This document shows positions 13,329-22,901 of a stretch of 64,000 nucleotides of DNA, piece after piece. Source of the DNA: Candidatus Multivoradales bacterium. GTDB taxonomy: Bacteria; Acidobacteriota; Thermoanaerobaculia; Multivoradales; J023. How positions within the stretch are numbered: the stretch's first letter is position 1; the number at the start of each line of letters is the position of its first letter. The stretch spans positions 1,888,001 to 1,952,000 of the forward strand of contig CBDFLE010000005.1 of assembly GCA_965248925.1 (NCBI GenBank), in the 5' to 3' direction. The notes below the pieces were generated by a model. That model did not search any database, had not been told where the DNA came from, and saw only the letters and a program-made list of their open reading frames with translations. A program made the translations under genes and the position numbers.

Positions 13329-14595
13329 GTATCGAAACCCCTCAACACCAAGTTTCTATCGCCCCACCCTGCCGGTAACGCCCATTTTTTAGGCACCCAA
13401 CAGCATCACCCGCCCACCTTTTGGGCGGAGATTCACAATAAAGTGGGCGTAGATGCATGGACGGTGGATCCTGTGCGCCTGACCTACCGGACATTCCCGG
13501 ACCGGGAGGGGGCAGGTCAGGAGGTCTAGACTCGGAGGCGGACCGCCTGCTGTAGAATCTTGACCGAGTGAAGAGCAGCCCGTCGCCAGCAGCACCGACT
13601 AGACTGGGGTAACGGACGGGACTCGCGCAGCGCCGCAGGCTGCACAGAGGTGCTTCGCCTGCGCGCTTGATTTTCAGCGAAAACTCTATACACTGCGACG
13701 GTGCGCAAGAGGGGGGGACGTAAGGCAGAAGGGTATACGCAAACAGGTATAAGTAGAGTCGAACCCGCAGGTACTCACTATGAGTAAAACTGAATCTTCG
13801 GGCGCTAGTTCAGACAATTCACAAGAGTTGACGCCTTCTGAGGGCGGCGATCTTTCTTCCTTTCCTACGCCTCCTCCTCTGCCCCGCGAACGCGCAGCGC
13901 GGGTAAAACCGAGGCCTGAGCCACCTCCCCCTCTACCCCCTCGGACCCCTGTAGCAAAGACTCCTACGCCCAAGGACGAGCTGAAGTCCTTGATCACCGA
14001 ATCGCGGGTGCATATTCCCGCTGATGATGCGGCCTCCACCTCTTTCCCCGCACCCCCACCCCTCCCCCCCAAGCTCACGCCACGCCCCCAAACGCCAACC
14101 CCGGCGCTAGCTCCTTCAGTTGCTGAGGCACCAGCACCGCCGCGGACGCGGAAAGCTCCGCCGCCGCCAGTTGCCCCGACCCCAGCGAGCAGCCAGCGTG
14201 GTGCAGCCGAATCACCTCCTCCTCTCACACCCAAAGGGCCATTACAGCGCCCTTGGACCGCGAAAAAACTTTGGCCTATATACGGCCTTGTGGCCCTAAT
14301 AGTGCTCGGCGTCGGTTTTTACTTCTCCACCAACCGGCCCGAGGATTCTCTTGCAGAAGTGGAGGCAGAACCGCAACAAGCGACAGCGTACCCTACGACC
14401 AGCCTCGTTGGTGGGGGACGGCTCCTTGTAGATGCCAGGCCCTGGGGCGAGGTGACATCCCTCCTCAACAGTGACGGTGAAGAGATTCAACTACCCCTGG
14501 ACCGCCAGACGCCGTTGGTCCTCGATCCCTCTGTGCCAATGTAGGTGAGACACTCCCGTACCGATAAATTAGTGAGGGCGTGGAGAGCAAACACC

Positions 14596-15009
14596 ATGGC
14601 GAGTCCAAGCCACGAGCTGCGAGATATGAGTGCTGACCGACCAGATCCCGAGGTAACTGAGAAGGCGAAGCGGCGGCGGTACAGCGCGTCGTACAAGCTG
14701 AGCATCGTCCAGGCCGCCGACGCCTGTAGCAAAGCCGGCGAGATTGGCGCCCTGCTTCGCCGGGAGGGTCTGTATTCCTCACTCCTATCGAAGTGGCGCC
14801 AGCAACGCGATGCCAGTGCTCTGGCCGGTCTGTCGAAGAAGCGCGGTCGCAAGCGTCGACCGGTCTCTGCCGAGGCCCGCCGCGTCGCGGAGCTTGAGCG
14901 TGAGAATGCCCGGCTCAAGCATCAGCTGTACAAAGCCGAGACGATCATCGATGTCCAAAAAAAACTTTCCCGGCTGCTAGGGATCGAGCCGAGCGAGAGC
15001 CAGCCATGA
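14596..15009 (+). CDS. IS3 transposase OrfA (HTH)
   Basis: KRRRYSASYKLSIV...LLRREGLYSS; A8 slippery run 14957-14964 with open -1 frame into OrfB. Confidence 0.88.
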   Translation: MASPSHELRDMSADRPDPEVTEKAKRRRYSASYKLSIVQAADACSKAGEIGALLRREGLYSSLLSKWRQQRDASALAGLSKKRGRKRRPVSAEARRVAELERENARLKHQLYKAETIIDVQKKLSRLLGIEPSESQP

Positions 15010-16127
15010 GCGCTGTGGCGCCGCTGGCCGAGACGGTGGGGGTGCAAGCAGCCTGCGTCGCCTTGGCGGTCCCCAGAGCCACTTTCTATCGCCGCCGTCG
15101 GCAGCAGAGCGCAGGGCCGCAGCTATCAACGCGGCCTCGACCGCCGCTGGCATTGACGCCCGCTGAACGCCAGGAGGTCCTCGATGTGTTGCACTCGGAG
15201 CGCTTCGTCGACCGCTCGCCGCGTCAAGTCTGGGCGGCGCTGCTGGACGAGGATCAGCGCCATATCTGCTCGGTGCGCACCATGTACCGGGTCCTGGAGT
15301 CTGAGGGCGAGCTGCGCGAGCGACGCCGTCAGCGGCGTCATCCCAACTACACCAAGCCCGAACTGCTGGCCACAGGGCCGAACGAGGTGTGGTCGTGGGA
15401 CATCACCAAGCTCAAGGGCCCGGTGAAGTGGACCCACTACTACCTTTACGTAATTCTGGACGTCTTCAGCCGCTACATCGTCGGCTGGATGCTCGCCTGC
15501 CGCGAGTCCGGAGGGCTCGCGAAGCGGTTGATCGCCGACAGTGTTGAGAAGCAAGGTGTTGAGCGAGATCGACTTACCTTGCACTCGGACCGCGGTTCGA
15601 GCATGACATCCAAGCCAGTGGCTCTACTGCTGGCCGATCTCGGGATGACACGGTCGCTGAACCGGCCCTACACGAGCAACGACAATCCGTTCTCTGAGGC
15701 CCAGTTCAAGACGCTCAAGTACCATCCGAGCTTTCCCGACCGCTTCGGATCACTGGAAGATGCACGAGCATTCTGCCGCTCGTTCATCGGCTGGTACAAC
15801 ACGCAGCACTACCACACAGGACTCGGCTTGTTGACGCCAGAGACCGTCCACTACGGCCTCACGGCCTCAGTACTGGAGCAACGTCGAGAAGTCCTCGCCG
15901 CCGCCTCAGCCGCTCATCCAAGCCGCTTCAAGCGGCGAGCGCCGGCTTTGCCGGAGCCCAGTGACAAGGTCTGGATCAACCCGCCGACCACCGCCGCCAG
16001 CACTGACCCAGTCGATACCGAGAACGTAGTGACACACCGCGTACACAACGACGCACCAGGCGAGACCCCTGGCTGCGCGCCCTCGCTGAAAGCGATGGTG
16101 CCGGAGCCACTACCGATTCCGTACTAA
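15006..16127 (+). CDS. IS3 transposase OrfB (DDE integrase core)
   Basis: WSWDIT, LHSDRG, NDNPFSEAQFKTLK. Confidence 0.92.
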   Translation: MSAVAPLAETVGVQAACVALAVPRATFYRRRRQQSAGPQLSTRPRPPLALTPAERQEVLDVLHSERFVDRSPRQVWAALLDEDQRHICSVRTMYRVLESEGELRERRRQRRHPNYTKPELLATGPNEVWSWDITKLKGPVKWTHYYLYVILDVFSRYIVGWMLACRESGGLAKRLIADSVEKQGVERDRLTLHSDRGSSMTSKPVALLLADLGMTRSLNRPYTSNDNPFSEAQFKTLKYHPSFPDRFGSLEDARAFCRSFIGWYNTQHYHTGLGLLTPETVHYGLTASVLEQRREVLAAASAAHPSRFKRRAPALPEPSDKVWINPPTTAASTDPVDTENVVTHRVHNDAPGETPGCAPSLKAMVPEPLPIPY

Positions 16128-16322
16128 TTCCCAGAAGAAAGTGTCTCACTTTCATTGACACATTCCGGATCTCACTCCGGGTCGCTATACGGTCTACTTG
16201 ACCCATCCGGAACTTCTCGAACAGAGTCGCTCTTGCGAAGTGCAGGTCTCGGCCAATGTCGGAGGTCTTTGCCGATTGGACCTCCTGTCGGTCACTGCGG
16301 AAGACTATTGGGAGGACGCGGG

Positions 16323-17408
16323 ATGGTGGCGTTGAGAATCTGGCGAAGTTCGACCGCCTTACTGCTTCTTGGATGGCTCCTTGTCCCATCGTTGCTCGGT
16401 GCTGCTGATGATTTCTTGGGCGCCTACAAGCAGGGGCTCAAGGCTATAGAGAGCCGGCAATGGGATCTTGCTGCGGAGAAAATGCGCGAGGCGTTAGCAG
16501 GACGCGCAGAGGAGAGCCGCAGACTCATCAAGAAGGGCTATCGCCGCAGATACCTACCGCATTATTTCCTCGGCGTCGCTCATTTTGAACTCGACGACTG
16601 CGAAAGTGCGCTTGAATCTTGGACGGAATCGGAACGCCAAGGCGTGGTCACCCGGCACAAGAACTACTATGAGAACCTCGCCCACTCCCGTGAACAATGC
16701 CAGGCCCGCAGTCGCGTCACTGATCAGATCGCCCCCCTCCAGCGGCAGCTCACCAAGTTGAGTTCGAAAGTATCCCGAGCATCGAGCCTGAAACGGGACC
16801 CGGAGCTCCAGGCCACTTGGGACACGGGATCACCTTCGCTGGCGGAGCGGCAGGCCAGAGCCCAGGAAAAGCTGCGACAAGCGCGCACTCGACTTGAGCA
16901 AGCCCAGTCGCAAGCAGATCTCGATTTGTTACCAGGGGTCGAGGACTTGCTCGCTGATGCAGGTCGAGAATGGAGAACTTTCGAGCAACAAGCCGAGGCT
17001 CAGCGCGCGAAAGTACGACCGACACACATTGCAAGGAAGCACGAGAACCAGGAAGGGAACACTTTGCAACAGCTGGATCCATCGATCCTGGGGATCGACC
17101 CTCCTCCCGCCGAGCTGGATGCCGCTGGGAGAGCTTTTCTGCACGGTGACTATCCACAGGTGATCGAGATTCTCGAGGGTTTTTCTGCCGAAGACAAGCG
17201 CGCCATGGCCCATGTCCACTTGCTGCGCTCAGCGGCTCTCTTCGCTTTGCATCGCATCCGAGGCGATGGCGTAATGCTGACCCTAGCTCGTGGGGAGGCC
17301 CGCGCGGCCCGTGCGGCCGACCCAGAGCTGGTATTGCCCGAGCGCTTCTTCTCAGCCCGTTTCCGTGAGCTGTTTCATCCTATAGAAGAATCTGACCAGG
17401 AGGATTGA
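16323..17408 (+). CDS. secreted TPR/coiled-coil protein
   Basis: GGAGG RBS, ATG 16323, signal peptide, YLPHYFLGVAHFELDDC TPR-like segment. Confidence 0.75.
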   Translation: MVALRIWRSSTALLLLGWLLVPSLLGAADDFLGAYKQGLKAIESRQWDLAAEKMREALAGRAEESRRLIKKGYRRRYLPHYFLGVAHFELDDCESALESWTESERQGVVTRHKNYYENLAHSREQCQARSRVTDQIAPLQRQLTKLSSKVSRASSLKRDPELQATWDTGSPSLAERQARAQEKLRQARTRLEQAQSQADLDLLPGVEDLLADAGREWRTFEQQAEAQRAKVRPTHIARKHENQEGNTLQQLDPSILGIDPPPAELDAAGRAFLHGDYPQVIEILEGFSAEDKRAMAHVHLLRSAALFALHRIRGDGVMLTLARGEARAARAADPELVLPERFFSARFRELFHPIEESDQED

Positions 17409-18983
17409 ATGGACTCAGACCTTTGGTATTACTCTCGCGACGGAGAAGAAAAAATAGGCCCGACTCCTGGAGACGATCTCCGGCATTGGATCGGCACCGG
17501 CCAATTGTCCCTCGAGACCCTGGTCTGGCGTCCGGACATGGACGATTGGATACCGATCCTGAACGTCGAGGAGTTCCAAGGCGCCGCCCCGCCCCTCGGC
17601 ATCAAGCAGGCCGCTGCGGAAGCGCACGGCCCGGATACCAGGCGTCTCTTCATGGTACTCAAGCAGGTTAGAGACGCTTTACCTTTGAGTCCCAAGTCCC
17701 TCCTCAACTTCTTCAGCTCAAAGTTTTTCTGGTTCGGGGTGGCGGCTCCGATCATCGTTTTCAAGATGCTCGTCGTGCCATCCATCGTCTCTCGCGCCGC
17801 GTCTTTCTTGGCCGACAGGTACGGCGTCGAGATGTCGGTCGAAGACTGGAGCGCAAACCTTCTCGATCTGAGCGCTACGGCGCACAACGCGGTCATCTCC
17901 ATTCCTGGACCCTACGCGGAGTCGGAGTTCTTGAGCGCTGAGGCGATCGAGATCGACCTCTCCCTATGGCATCGTATCGATCACAAAAAGTGGGTTCGCG
18001 ATATCCGGATCAAGGAGCCCAAAATCTATGCCGAGCGCCTGCTCTCAGGCCGTTGGAACTACCATGATCTGATGAGTGCACCGATCTCTCCACAGGTCAA
18101 TCCAGGGCCCCGGAAGAAGCTGGAGAAGGGTGAGATACAGGATCCGGAAGGGAAGTATTCTTTCTCGTTGGCGGGTGTGAGCGTCGAGCAGATGGGGCTG
18201 GAGTGGGTCGAAAATCTGCCCGGAAACTCCAAGAGTGGGATGATCCAGGAGTTGAAAACGACACTTTTCATCGACGACATTGAGGTGACCACGAAGAATC
18301 TCGTCGGCCTGGTGGACTTGAATTCTGATCGAAGAAGTCTGCTGAACCTGGAAGCCCGTACTGGCAGTGGTAAGATTTCTTTTACCGGCAGCGCCAATCT
18401 TTTCTTTTGGAAAACCTCCCAAGAGACGGCCGATGAAGTGGATTGGATGCCTGCCTTGAAAGGCGAGATCTATCTCGAGAATGTCGGCACCAATGCCTTT
18501 ACGCGCCTGATGCCAGATGCCGCGATTCTGCCCAAGGGAGGCACCCTCTCCGGTACTATTGAACTTGAATTGGAGGAGGGACAGGTCGAGTGCTATGCAC
18601 GCCTCAACCTACGCGATGCGACCTTCACCGCCAACCAAGCGTCCCGGTTTGTGTCTAACAACGCTTCCGCGATCAATGCGGACCTTTCCGGCTATCGGGC
18701 AAACGGGCAGTATCAGTTCAACTGTGGAGGTCGGCTGGGTGAAGAGACCTACCGCCCCTTCCAAGCTTTCCAGACCAACATGATCCTCCACGGTGTCGGC
18801 CAAGCCCCGAAATCGGTCCGGGTTCTGGCCGCCGTCGAACACGTTCGCTACAGTGAGGATCCGATCGATTCCAGCCTCGAGAGCGAGGTGAACAGGATCT
18901 TAGGAAACGAAGAACCAGAATGGCTCAGATGGGCCGGGCTAGCGTCTAAGGCGAGAAACTTTGGTCGCGGTAGGAGGCACTAG
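17409..18983 (+). CDS. GYF_2 (DUF4339) domain + transmembrane helix + AsmA/DUF748-like beta-rich region
   Basis: WYYSRDGEEKIGP...TLVWRPDMDDW; TM at ~aa 105-125; IKEPKIYAERLLSGRWNY. Confidence 0.7.
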   Translation: MDSDLWYYSRDGEEKIGPTPGDDLRHWIGTGQLSLETLVWRPDMDDWIPILNVEEFQGAAPPLGIKQAAAEAHGPDTRRLFMVLKQVRDALPLSPKSLLNFFSSKFFWFGVAAPIIVFKMLVVPSIVSRAASFLADRYGVEMSVEDWSANLLDLSATAHNAVISIPGPYAESEFLSAEAIEIDLSLWHRIDHKKWVRDIRIKEPKIYAERLLSGRWNYHDLMSAPISPQVNPGPRKKLEKGEIQDPEGKYSFSLAGVSVEQMGLEWVENLPGNSKSGMIQELKTTLFIDDIEVTTKNLVGLVDLNSDRRSLLNLEARTGSGKISFTGSANLFFWKTSQETADEVDWMPALKGEIYLENVGTNAFTRLMPDAAILPKGGTLSGTIELELEEGQVECYARLNLRDATFTANQASRFVSNNASAINADLSGYRANGQYQFNCGGRLGEETYRPFQAFQTNMILHGVGQAPKSVRVLAAVEHVRYSEDPIDSSLESEVNRILGNEEPEWLRWAGLASKARNFGRGRRH

Positions 18984-19134
18984 GATTGGGCAGGGCCTGG
19001 GGTTGCGATACTGCCCATCTTAGAACAGGACCGTTCGATGGCCTGGTGTTCATCAGCAATCGCGCGCACAAGAGAGCAAAAGGGCGATCCCTATCGAGCC
19101 GTATGCTCGGCGCCGCTGGAGTACAATGGGCGGC

Positions 19135-19809
19135 ATGATCAAACCCGAACTGATCCGCAGTCGCCTGGGAGTGCTGATCGCGCTGCTGCTTCTTGGCCTG
19201 TCTTTGGCTGGCGGGGTTTTCGCCGACGATACGCCACCGTCGCGTCCCGCCGCCGCCCCCACCTGAAGCGGCTGACCCGGTGAAGGAGCGCCGCTCCGGG
19301 GGAGCGGCATCGACTACGACTTCAGTTTTTCCCTGCGTTTCGTCGACACCGAGCTCGACCGACCGCGCTGGCGCTCGACGTTCCACTACCGCTTGCATCC
19401 GCGGTTGCAGCTCGGCGTCGAGGTCAACCCAGCGGCCGACGAGGTCGGGCCGCTGCTCACCTGGTTCTTGCTCACCGAGGGCGAGAGGCGGCCAGCGATG
19501 TTTCTCGGCACCAGTTCCGATCGCATCGGCTCGCCTGCCGGTGAGCAGTCGTACTTTCTGACCGTCGCCAAGCATCATCCACGGTTGCCAGTGTCAGCTT
19601 ACGCGAGCCTCAACTACTCGGAATGGGACGACGGCTTCAACGCGCCCTTCGGCGTTGAGGTCGAGTTCGGCGAGCGCTTTTCCCTGCGCCAGATGTACGA
19701 TGGTCAGCGGACTCACCTGATGCTCAACTACGCCGACCGCAGCTACGGTGTCTCGCTGCTCTGGGTCTGGCTCGAGCGCATCGGTATCGCCTTCTCGAAA
19801 CGGTTCTGA
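19135..19809 (+). CDS. probable selenoprotein: secreted outer-membrane beta-barrel-like protein with UxxU motif (224 aa)
   Basis: Signal peptide, ACC TGA AGC GGC TGA CCC (TGA 19264 and 19273), then the frame continues into ORF 19393..19809 ending in Phe; alternative ATG at 19126. Confidence 0.75.
19276..19308 (+). promoter_or_regulatory. bacterial SECIS-like hairpin
   Basis: 8-bp stem GCCGCTCC-GGG-GGAGCGGC (19290-19308); G-containing loop starts 22 nt after the second TGA. Confidence 0.6.
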
Positions 19810-19823
19810 CTTGAGGTTCTGAG

Positions 19824-20525
19824 ATGAAGATCATCAGCAACACCTGGATCGCCCTGGCCTTCGCTGCCGTCACCGCCACCACCGCGGCGGTGGCCGAAGA
19901 AGCAATCACCGCCACCACGGCGAGCACGGCGCCCGCGGTGTGCCCAGTCTGCCGGGTGCATGAAGGAGAGACCGAAGCCGAGCCGGTCGTCGCTTCTGCC
20001 GAGCACGACGGCCATACCTACGGTTTCTGCTCGATCAAATGCCGCGACACATTCCTCGAGGCACCCGTGAGCTACCTGCCGCCGGTCTTCCCTCGACCAG
20101 CGCCTGCATTTGTTGTCCACGACCTGAACGGTGCCGAGGTCTCCTCCGACACGTTCCGCGGCAAAACGGTGCTGCTCGACTTCTGGGCTACCTGGTGCCA
20201 GCCCTGCCTCGACGACCTGCCGAAGCTGACCCGTCTGCACAACCGCTATGCCGAAGACGGTCTAGTGGTCCTCAGCCTGTCGATCGATGAGGGAGAGAAG
20301 GCAGCCCGCAAGGTCAAACGCACAATCAAACGTCGCGGCGCCAAGCATCCCGTCTACCACGATGCCACCGGCACGCCGGCCTGGGAGTCATACCAGGTAC
20401 GGGTGGTGCCGACTCAGTTCCTGGTCGACAGCAAGGGTCGGATCGTCGCCCAGTGGTCGGGGCAAACCGATCTCGCCGCGGTCGAAGCTGAGATTGCCCG
20501 CCTGCTCGCCGCCGGCACCGACTGA
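19824..20525 (+). CDS. exported YHS-domain + TlpA/ResA-like thioredoxin (redoxin)
   Basis: Signal peptide, CPVC and YGFCSIKC (YHS), DFWATWCQPC. Confidence 0.88.
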   Translation: MKIISNTWIALAFAAVTATTAAVAEEAITATTASTAPAVCPVCRVHEGETEAEPVVASAEHDGHTYGFCSIKCRDTFLEAPVSYLPPVFPRPAPAFVVHDLNGAEVSSDTFRGKTVLLDFWATWCQPCLDDLPKLTRLHNRYAEDGLVVLSLSIDEGEKAARKVKRTIKRRGAKHPVYHDATGTPAWESYQVRVVPTQFLVDSKGRIVAQWSGQTDLAAVEAEIARLLAAGTD

Positions 20526-20553
20526 CCAATGAGACTTGGCCGAAGAAAAACTA

Positions 20554-20582
20554 CGGCGGCGAAAACCCGTGTTTCGCCGCCG
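20554..20582. terminator. hairpin between convergent redoxin and katG genes
   Basis: CGGCGGCGAAA-N7-TTTCGCCGCCG, 11-bp stem. Confidence 0.65.
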
Positions 20583-20591
20583 CCGTTGCGA

Positions 20592-22901
<2,310 letters not shown>

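Follow-up and report, generated by a model that had tools for sequence, protein, structure and literature searches.

The apparent two-stop gene at 19135–19809 of the window (the whole 64,000-nucleotide stretch of Candidatus Multivoradales DNA analysed here) most likely encodes a genuine outer-membrane barrel protein with two selenocysteines. Both in-frame UGA codons would be read as selenocysteine, recoding would be directed by one SECIS-type hairpin through SelA, SelB, SelD and tRNA-Sec, and the secreted product would carry a short N-terminal arm with a Sec-x-x-Sec motif (P-x-U-x-x-U-P-G-E-G) ahead of an outer-membrane β-barrel of about 12 strands. In all likelihood, this two-selenocysteine barrel protein is produced by single-hairpin recoding and works with a co-transcribed partner that combines a YHS/TRASH-like part with a thioredoxin. 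The coordinates of all features are collected in Table 1.

Table 1. Features of the two-gene unit and its surroundings (positions in the window)
Feature	Position	Strand	Details
UxxU barrel protein, whole coding sequence	19135..19809	+	224 codons and stop TGA 19807-19809; delimited with homologues
Signal peptide	19135..19224	+	n-region, hydrophobic core, VFA/DD; judged by inspection
Pro/Ala-rich linker	to 19263	+	follows the signal peptide; ends R-P-x-x-A-P-T
First in-frame TGA, codon 44	19264..19266	+	proposed to be read as selenocysteine; TGA in 122/122 loci, Cys (TGC/TGT) in distant relatives
Second in-frame TGA, codon 47	19273..19275	+	proposed to be read as selenocysteine; TGA in 122/122 loci, Cys (TGC/TGT) in distant relatives
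P-G-E-G codons	19276..19287	+	residues invariant, third codon positions vary freely
SECIS-like hairpin	19290..19308	+	8-bp stem, 19290-19297 with 19301-19308; starts 14 nt after second TGA, 23 nt after first TGA
Predicted transmembrane β-barrel	19321..19806	+	12 strands, ending in Phe; AF2 model, pLDDT 87.7, pTM 0.82
Partner gene	19824..20525	+	14 nt downstream; signal peptide, YHS/TRASH-like four-Cys stretch, TlpA/ResA-like thioredoxin fold with WCQPC
Terminator-like hairpin	20553..20583	.	12 bp; between the redoxin gene and convergent katG
katG	20592-22844		convergent with the redoxin gene; adjoins the two-gene unit

The reading frame was found as the original prediction had described it from the letters of the DNA, with a signal peptide from ATG 19135, a Pro/Ala linker, the two TGA codons and 177 further sense codons up to the terminal Phe (...SKRF). 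Translation could equally well start at another in-frame ATG, at 19126. In all relatives, the same frame begins with a hydrophobic N-terminus. The longest table 11 ORF in this frame is a 138-amino-acid tail starting at TTG 19393, the very piece that gene callers had been expected to report.

A DNA motif search revealed the TGA pair within the invariant motif P-x-U-x-x-U-P-G-E-G in 122/122 homologous loci from many phyla. Two TGA codons were present in 15/15 true homologues from 41 related genomes and in 32/32 from a 401-genome phylum sample (the motif being found in 43/43 loci of these two sets), and TGA/TGA was likewise found in all 80 loci, again from many phyla, that were kept from a scan of species-representative genomes. 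Since the homologous loci share 32–85% identity, they are not copies of a single contaminant sequence. Pro at position −2 and the P-G-E-G residues after the second TGA are invariant while their third codon positions use all synonymous bases, which demonstrates protein-level selection downstream of both TGAs. Ser at position −1 alternates between AGC/AGT and TCN codons among homologues, and the 13 codons from the first TGA to the hairpin are under amino-acid selection. Judged from these alignments, selection maintains the protein sequence of this frame across both UGAs. Chance is excluded because the pair is conserved across homologues.

These data also bear on the possibility, which we consider negligible, that the gene is a pseudogene or the result of a sequencing or assembly error, such as two mutually compensating frameshifts in C and G runs. 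Homopolymer runs do flank the region, the +1 frame is open for a stretch (reading P-P-E-A-A-D-P-V-K-E-R-R-S-G-G), and one database protein, P0085, was called in that frame. However, two TGAs 9 nt apart recur in every one of the homologous loci, which come from independent assemblies, and variation sits on third positions of frame 1 and not of the +1 frame. Logan contigs assembled separately from four runs were identical over 19100–19900, an observation that is weak alone, as all come from one sample that is possibly the window's own source.

The GC hairpin that had been noticed after the stops was analyzed both as a single structure and across the family. Its loop is GGG in the window and G-G/U-G in the family. 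The bSECIS model specifies a 3–9 nt loop with G in its first two positions, a 4–16 bp stem, 16–37 nt from UGA to loop and a minimum free energy of −7.5 kcal/mol or lower (PMC13188914). The hairpin agrees with this model in all four respects, with a 3–5 nt loop starting with G-G/U, a 6–8 bp stem, an energy of −17 kcal/mol and a loop located 22 nt from the second TGA and 31 nt from the first, i.e. within range of both codons. The stability of the 31-nt hairpin (z = −3.09) was equalled by 2 of 200 shuffles; the surrounding 73-nt region was not more stable than shuffled sequences (z = −0.96, 31/200). In 109 distinct sequences, 92.8% of stem cells were paired, compared to 79.3 ± 0.7 in shuffles, and both-sided changes were seen in six of eight pairs (82 cells), a level reached by none of 500 shuffles. 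Stem registers shifted from this one were at most 66.9% paired. RNAalifold, run de novo, predicted this helix too, and 5/6 of its pairs showed compensatory changes. The fixed register does not fit one subclade (L044, L047, L052, L055, L060) and two further loci (L125, L128), in which the hairpin is shifted or different. Covariation in the alignment shows that the hairpin is conserved through compensatory changes. A scan of 19100–19500 against Rfam returned no SECIS or other credible family at E ≤ 10. A narrow genome-wide scan for the same apex (CC-G[G/U]G-GG, stem of at least 7 bp, 8–30 nt after an in-frame TGA) gave 14 raw matches, three of which are copies of one repeat, and none was convincing.

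The original prediction had named the selenocysteine machinery as a check, and all of it was found in the genome: selA (515.6 bits), selB (352.9 bits) and selD (282.3 bits), each above cut-off, together with tRNA-SeC(tca). In the phylum sample, selA was present in all 32 gene-bearing genomes versus 301/401 overall, and the gene was found in none of the 100 genomes without selA (one-sided Fisher p = 6.7e-5, with related genomes not being independent). Formate dehydrogenases of the genome were sought for SECIS comparison and gave no match with TGA. TGA is an ordinary stop in this genome, terminating 1451 of the 2392 ORFs of at least 400 amino acids.

Reading of both UGAs as a standard residue (Trp, Cys or Gly) through near-cognate decoding, a suppressor tRNA or a local code change appears very improbable. 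It could be suggested by database proteins with W at both sites (P0044, P0050, P0122) or at the second site (P0164, P0146). Gene callers can produce W at TGA by calling under table 4. The DNA behind the P0050 peptide (locus L112), however, has TGA at both W positions, and the W calls come from contigs of 942–1480 nt, consistent with table 4 gene calls. The use of TGA as the stop of most long ORFs, the covarying SECIS-like hairpin and the occurrence of selA in every carrier genome also speak against a standard residue, and no suppressor tRNA was found within the window. Furthermore, verified DNA of distant relatives encodes Cys, not Trp, at both sites.

Such Cys-containing relatives, whose existence had been proposed as support for the selenocysteine reading, were indeed recovered. 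Among 19 distant relatives examined, five cluster representatives (P0177, P0183, P0214, P0179, P0131) have Cys at both aligned columns, and TGC/TGT was found at both sites in 7/7 metagenome loci (L164–L170). P0146 may be a CxxU form. The Cys forms share 30–34% identity and surfaced only through an exhaustive profile search; no Cys form was detected among close relatives, where motif-region searches of a 5.8-billion-protein index gave only W-bearing or shortened calls (2/17 and 1/51 candidates). Homologues with other residues, named beforehand as a refuting case, do occur: two of the 19 have neither Sec nor Cys (Ala and Ser in P0139, which comes from a planctomycete isolate, and Thr and Trp in P0164). 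Since five of the 19 carry Cys at both positions, this pair does not overturn the selenocysteine reading.

The mature part of the protein is predicted to be an outer-membrane barrel of roughly 12 strands. Structure prediction, which had been suggested as a check of the barrel, returned a transmembrane β-barrel, and Foldseek matched the model to transmembrane barrels only. The best structural matches are two small 12-stranded channels, the KdgM porin (4fqe; TM 0.54/0.60) and the amyloid secretion channel FapF (5o68; TM 0.51–0.53), with E of 5e-5 to 6e-4 and 13–14% identity. FapF has an N-terminal plug-and-coil region; unlike the window protein, neither KdgM nor FapF has an arm with a Sec/Cys pair or a redoxin partner. 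Of 40 aligned sequences, 38 end in F and two in W. At E ≤ 0.01 the window protein matched no Pfam family, and the KdgM/NanC porin family model was not matched. No NCBIfam family was found for the window protein (E ≤ 0.01) or for the YHS-fused form L040 either, the model of the UxxU metal-binding selenoprotein (NF041115) and the other selenoprotein models included; fused forms matched thioredoxin NCBIfam models only, via their redoxin domain.

The predicted fold also helps to assess whether the locus makes two products, a 43-codon leader ORF ending at the first TGA and a barrel started internally, which is extremely improbable. Gene callers do annotate downstream pieces only (134–173 amino acids), in agreement with the table 11 ORF described above. 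However, no start is conserved, the called lengths being 138, 142, 147, 151, 155, 158, 161, 166 and 173 amino acids, and a start at TTG 19393 would cost the predicted barrel its first strands. Without a signal peptide, the barrel could not be exported; the codons between the first TGA and the hairpin are selected as amino acids, and an entire thioredoxin domain precedes them in frame in 22 distinct loci. The double frameshift, the leader with an internal start and the pseudogene were rejected on the conservation of the TGA pair, the lack of a conserved start and the frame-1 third-position variation.

The next gene had been described as an exported CxxC redoxin, and its product was found to have both the signal peptide and a WCQPC motif. 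It matched the AhpC-TSA (71.6 bits) and Redoxin (63.9 bits) models above cut-offs. With the ResA and TlpA models it scored 96.3 and 64 bits, short of the curated cut-offs of 170 and 230 bits, and is therefore no equivalog of these proteins. The N-terminal part matched YHS (PF04945) with 25 bits (E = 1.9e-5), below the 30.3 cut-off. The YHS/TRASH pattern is C-x2-C ... C-x3-C, and the four Cys of the partner are spaced C-x2-C-x25-C-x3-C. Of 111 distinct loci, 93 have a YHS/TRASH and TlpA-like redoxin next to the barrel gene or fused to it. The redoxin follows the barrel gene in 63 loci and precedes it as an in-frame fusion in 22 and as a separate gene in five; in three further loci only its YHS part is visible before the locus ends. 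The in-frame fusions make the link stronger than had originally been claimed. His/Glu-rich linkers are located ahead of the motif in fused forms. An adjacent redoxin is absent in 18/111 loci, including all full-length Poribacteria loci, and a search of two Poribacteria genomes for a redoxin partner gave generic thioredoxin matches only. The Cys forms have two to three YHS domains (48–76 bits versus the 30.3 cut-off) and a thioredoxin-fold gene within 100 nt downstream in 5/5 loci.

The hairpin between the redoxin gene and katG is probably the end of the two-gene unit. In L069, a relative from the same family, the barrel gene is immediately preceded by katG and a gene for a Fur-family regulator; katG was adjacent in two of the 19 neighbourhoods inspected (the window and 18 loci). 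No conserved third gene was found among 61 flanking ORFs from these 18 loci, and the wider neighbourhood is not conserved. MIP channels are encoded in two of the 18 loci.

We propose that the arm cooperates with the co-transcribed periplasmic partner, in which a four-Cys YHS/TRASH module for metal binding would be joined to a TlpA-like thioredoxin with a CxxC motif. It is the fusions and the adjacency that suggest contact between the arm and the redoxin. The thioredoxin domain of the partner may keep the selenol pair reduced, and the pair may bind or pass a thiophilic metal, e.g. Cu(I) or Hg(II), at the periplasmic face or at the channel mouth. By analogy, and from the domain names and the His-rich linkers, we give such a metal-handling role about an even chance. 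Alternatively, the protein may be a real UxxU selenoprotein whose selenol pair is purely a redox catalyst in a peroxide or disulfide relay, for instance an outer-membrane peroxide or disulfide/polysulfide reductase recycled by the thioredoxin partner, and not a metal site. We regard this as unlikely. The AhpC/TSA-Redoxin fold of the partner is consistent with it, as are katG next to the unit in the window, katG and the Fur-family regulator in L069, and the listing of UxxU for a Prx-like oxidoreductase family. On the other hand, the barrel is accompanied by YHS/TRASH modules in every architecture (as many as three of them in the Cys forms), fused forms have His/Glu-rich linkers ahead of the motif, the motif lies in an arm outside any thioredoxin fold, and katG adjacency is limited to two neighbourhoods. 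A function other than metal handling or pure redox chemistry accounts for the rest of the probability.

The proposed metal-handling system can be compared with several known ones. Periplasmic thioredoxins of the TlpA, ResA and ScsC type reduce Cys pairs of copper-site proteins. The partner resembles them in its WCxPC motif, its signal peptide and its proposed job, keeping a metal-binding chalcogen pair reduced; unlike them, it has an additional putative YHS/TRASH module and would act on a selenol pair of an outer-membrane protein. A known family of UxxU metal-site selenoproteins is similar in having two Sec in U-x-x-U in place of a CxxC metal site and in its heavy-metal context. That family, however, is a soluble HMA-fold domain, whereas the motif studied here is in an unstructured arm before an outer-membrane barrel, with YHS/TRASH and TlpA-like domains as partners. 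Fish SelL has a UxxU diselenide. Prx-like thiol:disulfide oxidoreductase selenoproteins carry UxxC or UxxU (PF00578; PMC9312934, PMC2398784) and share with the window protein a UxxU redox motif, Cys-containing homologues and an occurrence mostly in uncultured marine and sediment bacteria. In SelL and the Prx-like proteins, the motif is an active site inside the thioredoxin fold; here, in contrast, the thioredoxin fold belongs to a partner, separate or fused, that retains its own CxxC, and UxxU lies outside it. Catalogued outer-membrane selenoproteins include a TonB-dependent receptor of the FCYXU type (NF049945; PMC13188914) and the GSU2204 / MtrB-PioB family barrel (NF041027; PMC12013277). 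Both resemble the window protein in having Sec in an exported outer-membrane β-barrel protein, but they have 22 strands or more and one Sec, compared to about 12 strands and two proposed N-terminal Sec in the window protein, which matches neither model.

The family is missing from the selenoprotein reviews and catalogues examined, although the supplementary tables of BSepDB, deep-Sep and the reviews might list it. Selenoproteins are usually discovered through close Sec/Cys pairs. According to its authors, the deep-Sep method may overlook families that lack Cys homologues (PMC12013277), which would explain the absence from catalogues. At least 533 relatives were found in the scan of species-representative genomes, in Acidobacteriota, Gemmatimonadota, Latescibacterota, Eisenbacteria, Poribacteria, Planctomycetota and other phyla. 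The protein database contains 769 pieces, nearly all of them N-terminally truncated "hypothetical proteins", so the family is generally mis-annotated in public data and every call lacks its functional end.

We tentatively suggest, as a possible though rather doubtful scheme, that one SECIS serving two UGAs 9 nt apart positions a diselenol inside a small outer-membrane channel or at its mouth, and that together with the YHS/TRASH-thioredoxin partner, fed from the inner membrane, it forms a selenium relay for a soft metal or electrons. Across many uncultured phyla, nearly all members of the family would then require Sec, and Cys would be confined to a distant branch. To our knowledge, no outer-membrane selenium-based relay of this kind has been described. 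The family offers a natural test of whether one SECIS and SelB can serve two UGAs within three codons, and it raises the question of the role of selenium on the periplasmic side of the outer membrane in soil, sediment and sponge bacteria.

Features of the barrel gene and its partner are listed in the table below. An in-frame ATG at 19126 is an equally possible start. Judged by inspection, the N-terminus appears to be a signal peptide: its n-region is basic, its hydrophobic core runs to VFA/DD, and a Pro/Ala linker comes next. After TGA2 the frame continues for 177 more sense codons and ends in ...SKRF. Translation with table 11 leaves only a 138-aa ORF of this frame, from TTG 19393, exactly the tail that gene callers had been expected to report. 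Database calls of barrel homologues start at many points and are 134-173 aa long.

Coordinates of the barrel gene, its recoding elements and the partner gene (window positions)
Feature	Position	Strand	Remarks
Barrel-protein frame	19135-19809	+	ATG 19135; 224 codons; stop TGA 19807-19809
TGA1	19264-19266	+	codon 44, in T-TGA-S-G-TGA-P
TGA2	19273-19275	+	codon 47, in T-TGA-S-G-TGA-P
SECIS-like hairpin	stem 19290-19297 with 19301-19308	+	loop G-G-G; 14 nt past TGA2, 23 nt past TGA1
Partner redoxin gene	19824-20525	+	14 nt 3′ of barrel gene; signal peptide, four-Cys stretch, thioredoxin fold

Genomes were searched for homologues with stops read through and counted. Two TGAs were present in 15 of 16 matching genomes among 41 related ones (the window's own included) and in 32 of 33 (32-77% identity) among 401 genomes sampled evenly from the phylum. 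The exception was both times the same genome, G031, a 19.5-bit match of no weight. All 43 loci fetched from these searches contain P-x-U-x-x-U-P-G-E-G. With each species represented by a single genome, a further scan returned at least 545 stretches and at least 533 confirmed relatives. The best 80 of these relatives belong to Thermoanaerobaculia, other Acidobacteriota, Gemmatimonadota, Latescibacterota, Eisenbacteria, Poribacteria, Planctomycetota, Methylomirabilota, Krumholzibacteriia, Calditrichia and others; TGA/TGA was read directly in 79, and the remaining locus, L113, has both TGAs and an N in a nearby codon. The DNA motif was matched in 122/122 loci (111 distinct sequences). One carrier, the unpublished genome G088 (locus L048), is inside the counts and outside the alignments.

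In alignment A2 (109 distinct sequences, 66 ungapped columns) Pro at −2 and P-G-E-G after TGA2 are invariant, every synonymous base is found at the third position of these codons, and the serine codons of residue −1 alternate between AGC/AGT and TCN. The invariant residues and free synonymous positions thus indicate amino-acid selection in frame on both sides of the TGA pair and between its two codons. Such selection rules out a +1-frame (double frameshift) reading. A leader ORF followed by an internal start is also ruled out, since no start codon is conserved and selection spans both TGAs. By sequence comparison, the in-frame TGA pair is neither damage nor chance, and the original prediction was right that it does not represent independent nonsense mutations.

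Only three of the 120 best database matches exceed 200 aa, namely P0044, P0050 and P0085; the last is an off-frame call. W occupies both Sec sites in database proteins P0044, P0050 and P0122. A Poribacteria locus (L112) encodes the exact P0050 peptide around the motif with TGA where P0050 has W, and the contigs of the W-bearing calls are 942-1480 nt long. We take these proteins to be table 4 gene calls, presumably a gene-caller habit. In the window's genome TGA ends 1451 of the 2392 mechanically defined ORFs of at least 400 aa and is therefore an ordinary stop. The W-bearing database proteins are artefacts.

Standard pairs occupy 92.8% of the A2 hairpin cells, compared to 79.3 ± 0.7 in column shuffles, and six of the eight pairs change on both sides (82 cells); the observed values were reached by none of 500 shuffles. 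When the partner strand was slid by 1-3 columns, pairing was only 33-67%. Unguided RNAalifold returned the same helix, with 6 pairs and compensatory changes in 5. Arm pairs of individual clades include GCCGCUCC/GGAGCGGC, GGCGGUCC/GGACCGCC, GGCAAUCC/GGAUUGCC and CCGCUUC/GAAGCGG, and the middle base of the loop is G or U. Part of the unpaired cells arises because one subclade and two other loci have a shifted or different hairpin. In the bSECIS model, the Fig. 2 legend of a 2026 review specifies a loop of 3-9 nt with G within the first two positions (PMC13188914), and the same source gives a stem of 4-16 bp, a UGA-loop distance of 16-37 nt and an MFE of at most −7.5 kcal/mol. The hairpin falls within all four limits for both UGAs (22 and 31 nt; −17 kcal/mol, z = −3.09). 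The stability of the wider 73-nt region is not unusual (z = −0.96), and Rfam has no match to the hairpin region. Covariation and agreement with the model both uphold the proposal that this hairpin acts as a SECIS.

The Sec machinery was found in the window's genome: selA (515.6 bits), selB (352.9 bits) and selD (282.3 bits), all over curated cut-offs, and a tRNA called SeC by ARAGORN, with anticodon tca. In the 401-genome sample selA was detected in 301 genomes (E ≤ 1e-30), including 32/32 barrel-gene carriers, and the barrel gene in 0/100 genomes without selA (hypergeometric p = 6.7e-5; the association is overstated, since related genomes are not independent). No formate-dehydrogenase-like gene of the window's genome contains an in-frame TGA; given the full machinery, its selenoproteome must consist of other families. 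The selD match (C6:4002031-4002954, minus strand, L010) lies in an 819-aa open frame, against 311 positions in the selD model, a length that suggests a fusion protein. Elsewhere in this genome, a stretch in which a TGA precedes a 7-bp hairpin with a GUG loop occurs in three identical copies (C5:972864, C5:983312 and, on the minus strand, C6:1721350); it is probably a repeated mobile gene.

Among close relatives no Cys form was found by motif-region searches of a word-indexed protein collection, which returned only W-bearing or truncated calls (2/17 and 1/51 candidates). When the A1 alignment profile was compared exhaustively with 1.84 billion cluster representatives, 315 reached E ≤ 1e-3; of these, 225 were at or below 1e-10 and 64 at or below 1e-30. 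From 150 listed matches we retrieved 19, picked for a match or length extending upstream of the barrel. Cys was present at both aligned columns in five: P0177, P0183, P0214 and P0179 (P-T-C-A-G-C-A-G/A-E-A-R) and P0131 (V-P-S-C-A-L-C). P0146, with C-V-G-W-P-G-E-G, may by its sequence be a CxxU form. The other 11 were barrel-only or had an off-frame N-terminus. When Cys forms served as the query, 7/7 metagenome loci had TGC or TGT at both positions; a hairpin at the corresponding position was predicted in none of the seven (RNAfold on an 80-nt stretch beginning with the first Cys codon). Thus, at the level of sequence, Sec/Cys exchange, the classical criterion, is observed at both positions, only in a distant branch of 30-34% identity. 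The anticipated CxxC homologues therefore exist; non-Cys residues, named beforehand as evidence against the reading, also occur, as Ala and Ser in P0139 (a cultured planctomycete isolate) and Thr and Trp in P0164. The second Sec or Cys position is followed by an invariant P-G-E-G in all Sec forms (alignments A1 and A3), by A-G-E-A in the main Cys branch, with G-E kept, and by P-S-P-T in P0131. The Pro and Gly may have a role in decoding Sec or in its chemistry. P0189, P0196, P0222, P0233, P0234 and P0254 form a barrel-only branch whose N-termini are rich in Lys and show neither an obvious signal peptide nor a Cys/Sec motif.

AlphaFold2 (40-sequence alignment; pLDDT 87.7, pTM 0.82) predicted twelve strands, the first beginning at residue 34 of the modelled piece (about 19321 in the window), with pLDDT 63-79 in the N-terminal arm. 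Foldseek against PDB returned transmembrane barrels only, the best being 12-stranded FapF (TM 0.51-0.53) and the KdgM porin (TM 0.54/0.60, rmsd 5.0). Of the 40 aligned sequences, 38 end in Phe and 2 in Trp. These features agree with the outer-membrane barrel first proposed. Neither Pfam nor NCBIfam release 20 has a model for the protein.

The partner, correctly recognized as an exported CxxC redoxin, combines a C-x2-C-x25-C-x3-C stretch (Pfam YHS, 25 bits; cut-off 30.3) with a WCQPC thioredoxin fold (AhpC-TSA 71.6 bits, Redoxin 63.9 bits); its nearest named models, ResA and TlpA, score under their cut-offs. Across the 111 distinct loci a redoxin lies directly downstream on the same strand in 63, the motif is preceded by an in-frame fused thioredoxin domain in 22, the redoxin is a separate upstream gene in 5, the locus ends after the YHS part in 3, and no redoxin was seen in 18, 3 of them incomplete. 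Fused forms consist of a signal peptide, a C-x2-C...C-x3-C domain and a TlpA/ResA-like domain, then an often His/Glu-rich linker, V-P-S-U-P-x-U-P-G-E-G and the barrel. Among the five loci whose redoxin is a separate upstream gene, four (L039-L041, L046) encode a barrel protein that carries a fused YHS-like domain of its own. Cys-form proteins have two or three YHS/TRASH domains ahead of C-x-x-C (48-76 bits, 3/3 tested), and a thioredoxin-fold gene lies within 100 nt 3′ in 5/5 loci with flanks. In Sec and Cys forms alike, the three modules thus travel together, in four different arrangements. Five genomes in which no redoxin adjoins the barrel gene were searched for one: three have a full-length YHS-thioredoxin orthologue at another place (43-58% identity) and two, both Poribacteria, gave generic thioredoxin matches only. 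In a Poribacteria genome from a lineage where no YHS-thioredoxin partner adjoins the barrel gene, a TlpA-like thioredoxin match with one in-frame TGA (G432:C142:93063-93500, plus strand) is by sequence a candidate redoxin with Sec.

No other conserved neighbour gene was found (61 ORFs, 18 loci checked). MIP-family channel genes adjoin the pair in 2/18 neighbourhoods (L067:977-1753, L120:4419-5129). Upstream of the barrel gene on the plus strand are a 524-aa protein gene with a GYF_2 domain and a DUF748/AsmA-like region (17409-18983), a 417-aa ORF without Pfam or NCBIfam match (16155-17408) and, some 3 kb away, an rve-type integrase/transposase gene (15006-16127; Pfam rve 79.3 bits) preceded by a 154-aa ORF (14545-15009), possibly an insertion sequence.

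SelB-type recoding of both UGAs by one hairpin, and a functional tie to the YHS/TRASH-thioredoxin protein, are strongly supported by sequence comparison. The same grade applies to export, as judged from sequence, and to the modelled outer-membrane barrel, which has 12 strands and bears the Sec-x-x-Sec arm at its N-terminus. Even-stranded barrels have both termini in the periplasm; together with the N-terminal thioredoxin fusion of many members, this would place the start of the arm on the periplasmic side. There the pair could form a diselenide reducible by the partner CxxC. At the channel, the selenols may bind a thiophilic metal or pass it on. The constant Cys-rich YHS/TRASH modules, the His-rich linkers and catalogued Sec metal sites suggest, by analogy, such a role; precedents listed in PMC13188914 include the UxxU HMA protein, a Cu/Zn efflux transporter, mercury transport proteins and MbdU. 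The main alternative is a purely redox role, hinted at by a katG-like catalase-peroxidase gene convergent to the window's unit (20592-22844, minus strand; Pfam peroxidase 234.5 bits) and by katG and a Fur-family regulator gene directly upstream of the barrel gene of a same-family relative lacking an adjacent redoxin (L069:3-2762).

Bacterial UxxU families described in the literature covered are a Prx-like oxidoreductase, an HMA-type metal-binding protein (NF041115) and an FmdB-family protein (PMC13188914, PMC9312934, PMC2398784); outer-membrane selenoproteins catalogued there are of the TonB-dependent receptor and GSU2204/MtrB-PioB types (PMC13188914, PMC12013277). The barrel protein matches none of these models. 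'Outer membrane', 'UxxU', 'barrel' and 'porin' are all absent from the main text of the BSepDB paper, and the deep-Sep method, by its paper's own account, may miss selenoproteins without Cys homologues (PMC12013277). A search of the literature outside supplementary tables found no description of a UxxU barrel family. The original prediction read this feature correctly, and the feature is real. We conclude that the UxxU barrel most likely defines a new family of selenoproteins, with a new architecture, that uses the known bacterial Sec decoding mechanism.
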